Source of the DNA: Escherichia coli
Lineage (GTDB): Bacteria > Pseudomonadota > Gammaproteobacteria > Enterobacterales > Enterobacteriaceae
DNA length: 64,000 bases
Strand: one strand, 5' to 3'
NCBI RefSeq assembly: GCF_051903065.1
Contig: NZ_CP178438.1
The notes beneath the pieces were generated by a model. The model had not been told where the DNA came from. It searched no databases and was given only the letters and a program-made list of their open reading frames with translations. A program made the translations under genes and the position numbers. Shown piece by piece: positions 1,377-12,146 of the stretch; position 1 is the first letter of the stretch; every line of letters begins with the position of its first letter.

Positions 1377-3268
<1,892 letters not shown>

Positions 3269-3355: not shown

Positions 3356-3907
3356 TTAATATATATCAGAAGCAGGCAGGCTGGAGGATTTCTGCACAAG
3401 TCCGGTACAGGTTTGGCGCTGATAGTGTTGATACTTCCGTAATGCGATGCGGTAATTGTTGGTGCTGGTGGTGGGCAGCCACGGGGCGAGGATTTCATCA
3501 AGGAAACCGTCCTGCAGCTGATCGAGGGAAATATTTTGCTCGTGTAGATGATTCCCCAAACGGCGCAGACGAACGACATATTCACGCACCGTACCAGGGC
3601 TCATTTCAGTTTGCTCAAAAAGAAATTGCTTAAAGCCGATAATATCGAAAAAATCACTCTGCGTTTTGCAATGTAAATCACCGCAAAATCGGCACAATGC
3701 CGCCCATGATTTTTGTTCCGTTTGCCAGCCATTTTCATCAAGCAGCGTGTCCAGGCGGGAAATCTCGATTTTATTCACTATTTTGCCGTCGCGAACTAAG
3801 GTAATGCGATCGAGTAATTTACGGCAATGCGCGCAATGGGTCTGGCTGTGTTTAAAGTCTTTAAGATAGCGGCTTAATGGCCGTCTTTTCAGGTGCTGCA
3901 CCATCAT
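3356..3907 (-). CDS. fliZ: Flagellar regulatory protein FliZ
   Basis: ORF 3356..3943 trimmed to 183 aa (MMVQHLKRRPL...); immediately downstream of fliA on the same strand. Confidence 0.85.
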   Translation of the reverse strand: MMVQHLKRRPLSRYLKDFKHSQTHCAHCRKLLDRITLVRDGKIVNKIEISRLDTLLDENGWQTEQKSWAALCRFCGDLHCKTQSDFFDIIGFKQFLFEQTEMSPGTVREYVVRLRRLGNHLHEQNISLDQLQDGFLDEILAPWLPTTSTNNYRIALRKYQHYQRQTCTGLVQKSSSLPASDIY

Positions 3908-3952: not shown

Positions 3953-4672
3953 TTATAACTTACCCAGTTTAGTGCGTAACCGTTTAATGGCCTGGCTGTG
4001 TAACTGACTGACCCGCGATTCCCCGACCTCCAGCACCGCGCCAATCTCTTTGAGATTCAGCTCTTCCTGGTAATAGAGGGTTAATACCAGTTTTTCGCGC
4101 TCCGGCAACGTTTCGATAGCTTCCATCACCCGCTGGCGCAGATTACTGTCCAGCAGTTGTTGTAGCGGGTTTTCTCGCTGATGATCATCAGTAACCAGTT
4201 CAATGCTATCGCCGTGCTCTTCGCGCCACTCATCGTAGGAGAAGAGCTGGCTGTTATTGGTGTCGAGCAACATTTGGCGATAGTCGGCAATATCGATCCC
4301 TAAACGTTCCGCTACCTCAGTTTCCGTGGCGTTGCGGCCAAGTTCCTGCTCCAGTTGCCCTATTGCCTGTGCCACTTCACGCGCGTTGCGTCGCACGCTG
4401 CGCGGCACCCAGTCACGGCTGCGAAGTTCATCCAGCATAGCGCCACGGATACGCTGCACTGCGTAAGTTGTAAATGCCGTTCCTTGTAGGGCGTCATAGC
4501 GTTCGACGGCATTAAGTAACCCAATGCCGCCCGCCTGTAGCAGATCGTCAAGTTCCACGCTCGCGGGCAGTCGAACCTGCAGGCGCAATGCTTCGTGACG
4601 CACCAGCGGGACATAACGCTGCCACAGCGAGTGTTTATCCATTACACCTTCAGCGGTATAGAGTGAATTCAC
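3953..4672 (-). CDS. fliA: RNA polymerase sigma-28 factor for flagellar operons
   Basis: 239-aa ORF with sigma-70 family regions 2 and 4; canonical position next to fliC. Confidence 0.95.
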   Translation of the reverse strand: MNSLYTAEGVMDKHSLWQRYVPLVRHEALRLQVRLPASVELDDLLQAGGIGLLNAVERYDALQGTAFTTYAVQRIRGAMLDELRSRDWVPRSVRRNAREVAQAIGQLEQELGRNATETEVAERLGIDIADYRQMLLDTNNSQLFSYDEWREEHGDSIELVTDDHQRENPLQQLLDSNLRQRVMEAIETLPEREKLVLTLYYQEELNLKEIGAVLEVGESRVSQLHSQAIKRLRTKLGKL

Positions 4673-4794
4673 GATAAACAGCCCTGCGTTATATGAGTTA
4701 TCGGCATGATTATCCGTTTCTGCAGGGTTTTTAATCGGACGATTAGTGGGTGAAATGAGGGGTTATTTGGGGGTTACCGGTAAATTGCGGACAG

Positions 4795-4817
4795 AAAAAA
4801 CCCCGCCGGCGGCGGGG
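4795..4817 (-). terminator. Rho-independent terminator downstream of fliC
   Basis: Minus-strand GC-rich hairpin CCCCGCCGCCGGCGGGG followed by a T-run, about 175 nt past the fliC stop. Confidence 0.55.
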
Positions 4818-4849
4818 AAGCACGTTGCTGACAAATTACCATTCATGTT

Positions 4850-4958
<109 letters not shown>

Positions 4959-4991
4959 TGCCGTCAGTCTCAGTTAATCAGGTTACGACGA

Positions 4992-6290
4992 TTAACCCTG
5001 CAGCAGAGACAGAACCTGCTGAGGAACCTGGTTAGCTTTGGACAGCACGGAGTTACCGGCCTGCTGAACGATCTGCGCTTTAGACATATTTGACACTTCG
5101 GTCGCATAGTCGGCATCCTGAATACGGGACTGCGCTTCAGACAGGTTAGTGGTGGTGTTATTCAGGTTGGTTACAGCAGAGCTCAGACGATTCTGTACCG
5201 CACCCAGAGAAGAACGGAATTTATCAACAGAAGCGATAGCTTTGTCCAATAGTGCCAGTGGGTTCTGAGTTGCAGTACCTTTCAGCTCAGTAGTTGCACC
5301 AGTACCGCTCAGTTGCAGAGTACCGGTATCAACAGCTGTAGTTGGAGCTGCAACACCGCTGTTCGCCAGAACGTCAACACCGGTCGCACCAGCCTGATAG
5401 TTTTTACCCTGAATGGTTACGTAACCAACAGCTGCACCGTTGGCGTCAGAAGTTACTTTGATCAGCTGACCGTTCTGAGTCGCTCCAGTAACACCATTAG
5501 TAGCGTCATCATAGGTGACGTCAGTGGTGTTCAGGTTAACTGCACCAGAGGCCGCGTTTACAGACACAGCATAGTTGTCGCTGCCAGAAGAAACAACGAA
5601 GGTACCAGTACCGTCACCAGCAGAGTCCTGAACTTCGTGCAGGCTCAGGGTGCTTGCATTCACGCCCAGTTTAGTTGCTACTGCGCTCAGGTCCACGTTC
5701 TTCGATGCAGCAGTAGTATTGCCGATCGTAGTGATAGAATCGCTCAGTTTCAGGGAGTTCTGAGAAACAGAGAAGCCGCTCAGACCCAGAGTAGAAGAGT
5801 CTATTTTCTGCAGGTCGATAGAGATAGTCTGGCCATCGTTCGCGCCAACCTGAATTGCCATAGAACCGTTTTTAGCCAGTACGTTCACGCCGTTAAACTG
5901 GGTCTGACCAGAGACGCGGTCAATTTCATCCAGACGAGATTTAATTTCATCCTGAATAGAAGAGAGATCGGAATCAGAGTTGGTACCAGTGGTGGCCTGC
6001 ACGGTCAACTCACGCACACGCTGCAAGTTGTTGTTAATCTCTGACAGCGCGCCTTCTGCTGTCTGTGCTAGAGAAATACCGTCATTGGCGTTACGTGCAG
6101 CCTGAGTCAGACCTTTGATGTTAGAAGTGAAGCGGTTAGCAATCGCCTGGCCCGCAGCGTCATCTTTAGCGCTGTTAATGCGCAGACCAGAAGAGAGGCG
6201 CTCGATAGAAGTCGACAGCGCAGACTGGTTTTTGTTGATGTTGTTCTGAGTGATCAGCGAGAGGCTGTTGGTATTAATGACTTGTGCCAT
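4992..6290 (-). CDS. fliC: Flagellin (432 aa; conserved N- and C-terminal D0/D1 domains, variable central domain)
   Basis: N-terminus [54 protein letters not shown] and C-terminus ...[11 protein letters not shown] are canonical flagellin; the central part is Thr/Ser/Gly/Ala/Asn-rich. Confidence 0.95.
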
Positions 6291-6366
6291 GATTCATTTT
6301 CCTGTTTTCAAGTCTACGGTTTAAGTATTGGGCTTCCACCCTTCGGCTTCGTCGCCGTCAACCCTG

Positions 6367-6393
6367 TTATCGTCTGGTCACTCACAACCTTTA
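6367..6393 (-). promoter_or_regulatory. Sigma-28 (class 3) promoter of fliC
   Basis: Minus-strand TAAAGGTT, 11-nt spacer, GACGATAA, about 75 nt upstream of the fliC ATG; matches the TAAAGTTT-N11-GCCGATAA consensus with few mismatches. Confidence 0.55.
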
Positions 6394-6466
6394 GAATTTT
6401 TTTCTAGCGGTCGAAATACTCCCCTTCCTCGTTGCTGTTCGTGTCATTAAGCCAAAAAATAAATCG

Positions 6467-6493
6467 TAAACTTTGCCCCGCTTACGCCGATAA
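6467..6493 (+). promoter_or_regulatory. Sigma-28 (class 3) promoter of fliDST
   Basis: TAAACTTT, 11-nt spacer, GCCGATAA, about 40 nt upstream of the fliD ATG; near-perfect consensus. Confidence 0.65.
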
Positions 6494-6535
6494 CCCCGGT
6501 ATTCGTTCTATACGTCGCATGATTAAGGAATCTAT

Positions 6536-10940: not shown

Positions 10941-12146
10941 ATGTCATGGCAGCAATTCAAACACGCCTGGTTGATTAAATTCTGGGCCCCCATCCCTGCG
11001 GTCATCGCGGCGGGTATTCTCTCTACTTACTATTTTGGCATTACTGGCACCTTTTGGGCTGTCACGGGTGAATTTACCCGTTGGGGCGGTCAGCTCCTGC
11101 AGCTGTTTGGCGTCCATGCTGAAGAGTGGGGTTATTTTAAAATTATCCATCTGGAAGGATCGCCATTAACCCGCATCGACGGGATGATGATCCTCGGTAT
11201 GTTTGGCGGCTGCTTTGCCGCAGCGCTGTGGGCCAACAATGTCAAACTACGCATGCCGCGTAGCCGTATCCGCATTATGCAGGCCATCATTGGCGGCATT
11301 ATCGCCGGTTTTGGCGCGCGTCTGGCAATGGGCTGTAACCTGGCGGCATTCTTTACCGGTATTCCTCAGTTCTCGCTGCATGCCTGGTTCTTTGCCATCG
11401 CCACTGCCATTGGTTCATGGTTTGGCGCGCGCTTTACCCTGCTGCCCATCTTCCGTATTCCCGTGAAAATGCAGAAAGTTTCTGCCGCCTCACCGCTGAC
11501 GCAAAAACCGGATCAGGCGCGGCGTCGTTTTCGTCTCGGGATGCTGGTCTTTTTCGGCATGCTGGGCTGGGCGCTGCTCACGGCGATGAACCAACCAAAA
11601 CTGGGGCTGGCAATGCTGTTTGGCGTCGGCTTTGGTTTACTGATTGAACGTGCGCAAATCTGCTTTACTTCGGCGTTCCGCGATATGTGGATCACCGGAC
11701 GTACCCATATGGCGAAAGCAATCATTATTGGTATGGCGGTGAGTGCCATCGGGATCTTCAGTTACGTACAGTTAGGCGTTGAACCCAAAATCATGTGGGC
11801 GGGACCAAACGCGGTAATTGGTGGTTTACTGTTTGGTTTTGGCATCGTGCTGGCTGGCGGCTGCGAAACCGGCTGGATGTACCGCGCGGTAGAAGGCCAG
11901 GTGCACTACTGGTGGGTCGGTCTGGGCAATGTGATCGGCTCAACGATTCTGGCGTATTACTGGGATGATTTCGCTCCGGCGCTGGCCACCGACTGGGACA
12001 AAATCAACCTGCTGAAAACCTTTGGTCCGATGGGTGGCCTGCTGGTGACATATTTGCTGTTGTTTGCTGCGCTGATGTTGATTATCGGCTGGGAAAAACG
12101 CTTCTTCCGCCGTGCGGCACCGCAGACTGCTAAGGAGATCGCATGA
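10941..12146 (+). CDS. yedE: YedE/YeeE-family inner-membrane transporter (selenium/thiosulfate-related)
   Basis: 401-aa polytopic membrane ORF; stop overlaps the yedF start. Confidence 0.8.
   Translation: MSWQQFKHAWLIKFWAPIPAVIAAGILSTYYFGITGTFWAVTGEFTRWGGQLLQLFGVHAEEWGYFKIIHLEGSPLTRIDGMMILGMFGGCFAAALWANNVKLRMPRSRIRIMQAIIGGIIAGFGARLAMGCNLAAFFTGIPQFSLHAWFFAIATAIGSWFGARFTLLPIFRIPVKMQKVSAASPLTQKPDQARRRFRLGMLVFFGMLGWALLTAMNQPKLGLAMLFGVGFGLLIERAQICFTSAFRDMWITGRTHMAKAIIIGMAVSAIGIFSYVQLGVEPKIMWAGPNAVIGGLLFGFGIVLAGGCETGWMYRAVEGQVHYWWVGLGNVIGSTILAYYWDDFAPALATDWDKINLLKTFGPMGGLLVTYLLLFAALMLIIGWEKRFFRRAAPQTAKEIA

Follow-up and report, generated by a model that had tools for sequence, protein, structure and literature searches.

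The sigma-28 promoter upstream of fliA in Escherichia coli and its interleaving with the FlhDC-activated class 2 promoter

The window, a stretch of 64,000 nucleotides of Escherichia coli DNA, contains the fliC-fliA-fliZ region, in which it shares 100% identity with E. coli chromosomes that have annotations for fliA and flagellin. The sigma-28 gene fliA is a 239-aa ORF on the minus strand with the start codon GTG (3953..4672; ORF list, RefSeq annotation of K-12 and of the E. coli genomes with 100% identity). Colinear mapping, in which the window coordinate equals the NC_000913.2 coordinate minus 1,995,141, placed the second operon gene, fliZ, at 3356..3907 (minus strand) from the K-12 annotation. 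The likely Shine-Dalgarno sequence of fliA, GCAGGG, lies around 4682..4687 (minus strand). An intrinsic terminator at 4801..4817 (minus strand), identified by terminator scan and by the K-12 fliX annotation, marks the end of fliC and of the sRNA FliX and shields the fliA promoter from transcription upstream. The 3'UTR of fliC with its REP-like repeats (about 4795..4989, minus strand) ends at this terminator (4817..4801) and corresponds to K-12 FliX (NC_000913.3 2001912..2002106); only some 70 nt separate the end of the FliX region from the fliA core promoter downstream of it, and a 5' end has been mapped inside it (NC_000913.2 2000020, about window 4879; Kim et al., 2012, PMC3415461).

Comparison with the fliAZY region of K-12 revealed that this strain differs only at 4779..4791, further upstream, and in the fliC/fliD region, while MG1655 shares the 28-nt site discussed below (TGCAGAAACGGATAATCATGCCGATAAC) and the 100 nt preceding fliA without any difference. 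In the fliC/fliD region, both spacers of the divergent promoters (6366..6494) differ from K-12, the fliD -10 element is a perfect GCCGATAA where K-12 has ACCGATAA, and fliC encodes 432 aa here vs. 498 aa in K-12. These promoter differences are in line with how the fliC-fliD region varies among flagellin types.

On the minus strand, the sequence from the fliC terminator to fliA reads ...CCGATTAAAAACCC TGCAGAAA CGGATAATCAT GCCGATAA CTCATATAACGCAGGGCTGTTTATC GTG. The octamer GCCGATAA, with the conserved CGA core, occupies 4698..4705 on the same strand as fliA, is followed by C4697 and matches the sigma-28 -10 consensus at all eight positions. An earlier note on this DNA had located it at the same place, 26 nt upstream of the fliA start, which corresponds to the 25 nt that separate octamer and GTG (4672); both orientation and distance suit a sigma-28 promoter of fliA. 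The same note had called the -10 element weak, which does not hold, because the octamer is an exact consensus match with the commonest trailing C, and only the -35 element is poor. At the canonical spacing of 11 nt (spacer CGGATAATCAT, 4706..4716, minus strand, read from the sequence), the -35 octamer is TGCAGAAA (4724..4717, minus strand), which shares T1, A4 and G5 with TAAAGTTT, three of eight positions; the mismatch at the expected -35 position had thus been noted correctly. Spacers of 10 or 12 nt give a worse match to TAAAGTTT than 11 nt. The sole nearby TAAA (4733..4730) was considered as a -35 element and rejected, being 25 nt from the octamer and thus too distant for sigma-28.

Exact copies of GCCGATAA occur eight times in the window against 2.37 expected, a count attained in none of 100 shuffles. 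From the window background rate, the chance that fliA is preceded, on the correct strand and within about 60 nt, by an exact copy comes by simple arithmetic to about 1e-3. A full-consensus search recovered the fliC promoter (6367..6393, minus strand) and the fliD promoter (6467..6493, plus strand) as positive controls. When about 128,000 window positions were scored with a PWM built from the published FliA ChIP sites minus fliA itself, the fliA site ranked sixth, with the fliD, fliC and fliL promoters as its neighbors in rank. The third-best PWM match in the window (16.5 bits) is TAAATATGGCGTGCGGATCACCGATATT at 26071..26098 (plus strand), downstream of fliL; it has a good -35 element and does not appear in the published set of K-12 FliA peaks.

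The 52 published FliA ChIP sites were also scored leave-one-out, and the -10 score of fliA, 14.4 bits, was the maximum of the set. Its -35 half-score is 1.1-1.5 bits against a mean of -4.9 for random octamers, and about 5% of random octamers reach that value; of the 25 sites whose fold-above-threshold (FAT) value exceeds 4, a worse -35 half is found only at ves, yafY, yrfF and secD. At the aer promoter, mutagenesis identified three critical positions of the -35 octamer, T1, A3 and G5, and fliA keeps two of them, T1 and G5. The fliA site is accordingly one of those FliA promoters that rely chiefly on the -10 element.

Two look-alikes in the window, at 3616..3643 (plus strand, antisense in fliZ) and 12081..12108 (minus strand, antisense in yedE), carry a perfect GCCGATAAT, resemble fliA in their PWM totals and -35 scores and are identical in K-12, and both are absent from the 52 published K-12 FliA ChIP-seq peaks. 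Such motifs can thus be inert, which, together with a -35 element matching at only three of eight positions, speaks for GCCGATAA upstream of fliA being a chance occurrence that is neither bound nor functional. The low probability of an exact copy at that location and on that strand argues against this, as do the occupancy and conservation described below. Because look-alikes of equal score have no ChIP peak, the sequence score alone cannot explain the very high FliA occupancy at fliA. Contributions may come from the promoter context, from FlhDC or from the invariant T..AGAA block of the -35 region.

This occupancy is documented on an identical sequence: in E. coli K-12, TGCAGAAACGGATAATCATGCCGATAAC is the FliA ChIP-seq motif reported for fliAZY (Fitzgerald, Bonocora and Wade, 2014, PMC4183435; corrected table PMC4203485). 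With an FAT of 91, fliAZY stands fourth of the 52 sites, below only fliC (110), motA (101) and tsr (94), and its peak center at 1999845 falls at window 4704, on the octamer (PMC4183435, PMC4203485). The authors refer to Liu and Matsumura (1996) and treat fliAZY as a complex promoter known before their study, in which sigma-70/FlhDC and sigma-28 are combined (PMC4183435).

The second component of this promoter can be read directly from the sequence. A near-consensus sigma-70 -10 hexamer, GATAAT, lies at 4709..4714 (minus strand) within the sigma-28 spacer, 3 nt from the sigma-28 octamer, and can be assigned to the FlhDC-dependent class 2 promoter. Primary mapping of the fliA promoter is reported in Liu & Matsumura 1996, Mytelka & Chamberlin 1996, Ikebe et al. 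1999 and Tanabe et al. 2011. The fliA start was mapped to NC_000913.2 1999843 (minus strand), with a 5'UTR of 30 nt and an upstream sequence ending in ...GGATAATCATGCCG (Kim et al., 2012, supplementary table, PMC3415461). Mapped to the window via the K-12 locus, this class 2 (sigma-70/FlhDC) start is G4702 (minus strand), which is 7 nt downstream of GATAAT and inside the sigma-28 octamer. A scan of 4500..5100 with the sigma-70 consensus found no full promoter and no good -35 element; this is uninformative because class 2 promoters are activator-dependent and have no good -35 element. The arrangement seen at 4709..4714 and G4702, a sigma-70 -10 element with a poor -35 and a start about 7 nt downstream, is that of a class 2 promoter.

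The FlhD/FlhC ChIP-seq peak at this locus is centered at NC_000913.2 1999877, about window 4736 (Fitzgerald et al., 2014, PMC4183435), which points to a putative FlhD4C2 binding region at 4733..4775 (minus strand), a well-conserved block. It contains a half-site-like AACCCCCAAATAACC at 4761..4775. However, the pattern AAYGSNNAAATARCG with up to three mismatches is barely above chance in the window (143 matches vs. 115 expected) and thus too unspecific to fix the FlhDC box, whose position we infer from the ChIP peak.

In the start-site table of Kim et al. (2012, PMC3415461), no start is listed near 4690, and 4702 is the sole proximal one. The distance from octamer to start is 6-8 nt at other sigma-28 promoters and 6 bp at aer. 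By analogy, a sigma-28 start would be expected at 4689..4692 (minus strand), near 4690 and about 10-12 nt downstream of the class 2 start, with a leader of about 17-20 nt.

Under the conditions of Fitzgerald et al. (2014, PMC4183435), deletion of fliA had little effect on dual-regulated genes, so most of their transcription comes from the sigma-70 promoter. When FliA was overexpressed in a flhD deletion, RNA of all dual-regulated targets went up (PMC4183435), and the site is therefore able to fire productively. In a follow-up preprint, lacZ fusions of the "well-characterized" fliA promoter gave no detectable FliA-dependent activity over the sigma-70 background, for which its authors blame the strong sigma-70 promoter.

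The fliL promoter of fliLMNOPQR, TCAAGACGCAGGATAATTAGCCGATAAG (24198..24225, plus strand), a K-12 FliA ChIP motif with an FAT of 18, is built in a similar way. It consists of the -35 element TCAAGACG (four of eight positions), the spacer CAGGATAATTA and a perfect -10 element GCCGATAA (24217..24224) followed by G. As at fliA, GATAAT lies in the sigma-28 spacer (24209..24214), the -35 element is weak, and FlhDC and FliA are co-bound. Unlike fliA, however, the gap between GATAAT and octamer is 2 nt instead of 3 nt, the FAT is 18 instead of 91, and FliA overexpression elicits only a small or even a repressive response.

These observations bear on an alternative in which the octamer-bound FliA holoenzyme is mainly a brake or hand-off switch on class 2 transcription, occluding the sigma-70 -10 element and start instead of forming a productive promoter. 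With -10 elements 3 nt apart and G4702 inside the octamer, the two promoters are mutually exclusive in space; an FAT of 91 that coexists with barely altered dual-gene expression in the fliA deletion, and a 2.1-fold decrease of fliL expression under FliA overexpression, would also suit this alternative. However, the rise of dual-target RNA upon FliA overexpression in the flhD deletion argues against it, and according to published Salmonella work, bistability needs the class 3 component of PfliA, which indicates that the feedback is positive rather than negative. We therefore consider such a role improbable.

The canonical class 3 promoters, fliC (6366..6393, minus strand), fliD (6467..6494, plus strand), tar and tsr, are like fliA in their consensus -10 element, 11-nt spacing and comparable FliA occupancy. 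They differ from it in having a strong -35 element (7-8 of 8 positions) and no overlapping sigma-70/FlhDC promoter, and their expression collapses on fliA deletion, while class 2 transcription of the fliA operon continues. The sites at ves and yafY/ykfB resemble fliA in that they combine a perfect GCCGATAAC with a very poor -35 element (ves one of eight, yafY two of eight) and show substantial occupancy (FAT 44 and 24). Because these two are well bound, a matching -35 element is not obligatory in the ChIP-defined set. Unlike fliA, ves and yafY/ykfB have no overlapping activator-dependent sigma-70 promoter and no known feedback on the flagellar regulon.

To describe the conservation of the site, species-representative genomes were scanned once, and the 80 closest fliA loci listed (86-97% protein identity) were compared. 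They come from more than 25 genera, including Escherichia, Salmonella, Citrobacter, Enterobacter, Leclercia, Kosakonia, Cedecea, Buttiauxella, Kluyvera, Siccibacter, Franconibacter, Mangrovibacter and Pantoea. Among these 80 closest species loci, the octamer is GCCGATAA in 76, GCCGATTA in two and GCCGATGA in two; both GATAAT and the 11-nt spacing are present in 80 of 80, and the octamer lies 24-26 nt from the start codon in all. Their -35 octamer follows T[GCA][CT]AGAA[AT], with T1, A4 and G5 invariant. Variation among the same loci is concentrated at 4723, 4717, the three bases between both -10 elements and the discriminator at 4691..4694. The core promoter and leader of Salmonella diarizonae are identical to the window at 55 of 56 positions. 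Within E. coli, the 126-nt region is found in 5379 of 5426 complete genomes and is at least 99% identical in 5333 of them.

GCCGATTA and GCCGATGA are the sole octamer departures among the 80 closest loci listed, and both are known from weaker published FliA sites. GCCGATTA replaces GCCGATAA upstream of fliA (at about 1960..1975) in L001 and L002, which are titled E. coli and have a FliA 95-97% identical; GCCGATGA occurs in L075 and L076, genomes labeled Klebsiella/Enterobacteriaceae.

The near-invariance of the octamer across the 80 closest species loci listed, together with strong ChIP-seq occupancy, excludes the coincidence that the earlier note had offered as one of two readings; a chance occurrence, with neither binding nor function, is extremely improbable. 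The other reading, an autoregulatory FliA promoter with a degenerate -35 element, is borne out by the FliA ChIP motif with its FAT of 91, the published dual promoter and the FliA-driven RNA in the flhD deletion.

Because the octamer overlaps the class 2 start and the initial transcribed region, its conservation cannot be credited to sigma-28 alone. The octamer might even be kept only for its role as class 2 start site and initial transcribed sequence, with FliA binding being incidental and without selected function. The position of the class 2 start within the octamer fits this explanation, as does the high conservation of the whole core promoter beyond the octamer, and many E. coli FliA sites are thought to be non-functional products of drift. 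However, initial transcribed regions are rarely kept at eight of eight positions to the consensus of another sigma factor over more than 25 genera, and the adjacent discriminator varies. The same promoter pairing recurs independently at fliL, and drift sites within genes are not conserved between species, whereas the fliA site is. Furthermore, Salmonella reportedly shows a phenotype when the class 3 component is removed. Incidental binding is accordingly very unlikely.

According to the citing literature, fliAZ has two promoters in both E. coli and Salmonella, and the Salmonella sigma-28 (class 3) transcript is poorly translated for FliA and acts through FliZ. FliA raises FliZ, and FliZ represses ydiV, by which the inhibition of FlhD4C2 is relieved. 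Because FliA is poorly translated from the sigma-28 transcript, the positive feedback in Salmonella is indirect and runs mainly via FliZ. It seems reasonable, by analogy, to carry these results on translation and feedback over to E. coli, where fliZ would likely be the main beneficiary of the sigma-28 transcript. In Xenorhabdus, transcription of fliAZ is reportedly unaffected by FliA.

Folding of leaders from 4702 (class 2) and from 4692 or 4690 (predicted class 3) gave the same accessibility of the Shine-Dalgarno sequence and the start codon, and secondary structure was thus rejected as the reason why the short transcript is poorly translated for FliA. The class 2 leader differs from the predicted class 3 leader only by its 12-nt 5' extension GAUAACUCAUAU, of which 75% is A/U. 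An explanation of FliA translation by an AU-rich leader has reportedly been given by Tanabe, and the A/U-rich extension agrees with it, though this is no evidence for it. In the predicted fold of 4613..4702 (minus strand), the fliA Shine-Dalgarno sequence and GUG pair with the early coding region, giving the start codon an unpaired probability of about 0.03-0.04, and this pairing holds whichever promoter makes the transcript. The model hints that translation initiation of fliA is intrinsically structured.

Taken together, the element is very probably the sigma-28 (FliA)-dependent class 3 promoter of fliA-fliZ-tcyJ, interleaved with the FlhD4C2-activated sigma-70 class 2 promoter. Early in assembly, upstream FlhD4C2 would recruit sigma-70 polymerase to GATAAT (4709..4714), and transcripts starting at G4702 with a 30-nt leader would yield FliA and FliZ. 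FliA would be kept inactive by FlgM, which is exported once the hook-basal body has been completed. Free FliA holoenzyme would then bind GCCGATAA (4698..4705), relying on the -10 element and the residual T..AG in the -35 element, and would initiate about 10-12 nt further downstream, near 4690, with a shorter leader. If the Salmonella results apply, the shorter transcript would give little FliA and still FliZ, whose repression of ydiV would reinforce FlhD4C2 activity. Such a loop would be positive, indirect and coupled to the assembly checkpoint.

A more specific version of this promoter can be proposed from its very high FliA occupancy despite the poor -35 element and from the missing ChIP peaks at the look-alikes. 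Something besides the recognized -35 and -10 elements might load the sigma-28 holoenzyme, candidates being FlhD4C2, by way of the alpha C-terminal domain, and the invariant CAGAA block, as another contact upstream. Because the sigma-28 -10 element covers the class 2 start, the site would then be an activator-assisted sigma hand-off that switches leader and FliA:FliZ output upon FlgM export. This version is speculative, and we regard it as rather unlikely.

For the class 3 promoter itself, occupancy by FliA and by FlhDC, the class 2 start and FlhDC-independent transcription by FliA are all documented in the literature on an identical sequence. The promoter is real, functional and already known. 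It is the hybrid class 2/class 3 promoter of fliAZ(Y) in E. coli and Salmonella, at the same locus and with the same sequence, without substantive difference. Since it has been described since the 1990s and was mapped genome-wide in 2014, its confirmation in the window adds no new biology. Inert look-alikes a few kb away are not separable from the fliA site by motif score alone, and a perfect sigma-28 -10 element with a poor -35 element can still be a strongly occupied and conserved promoter.
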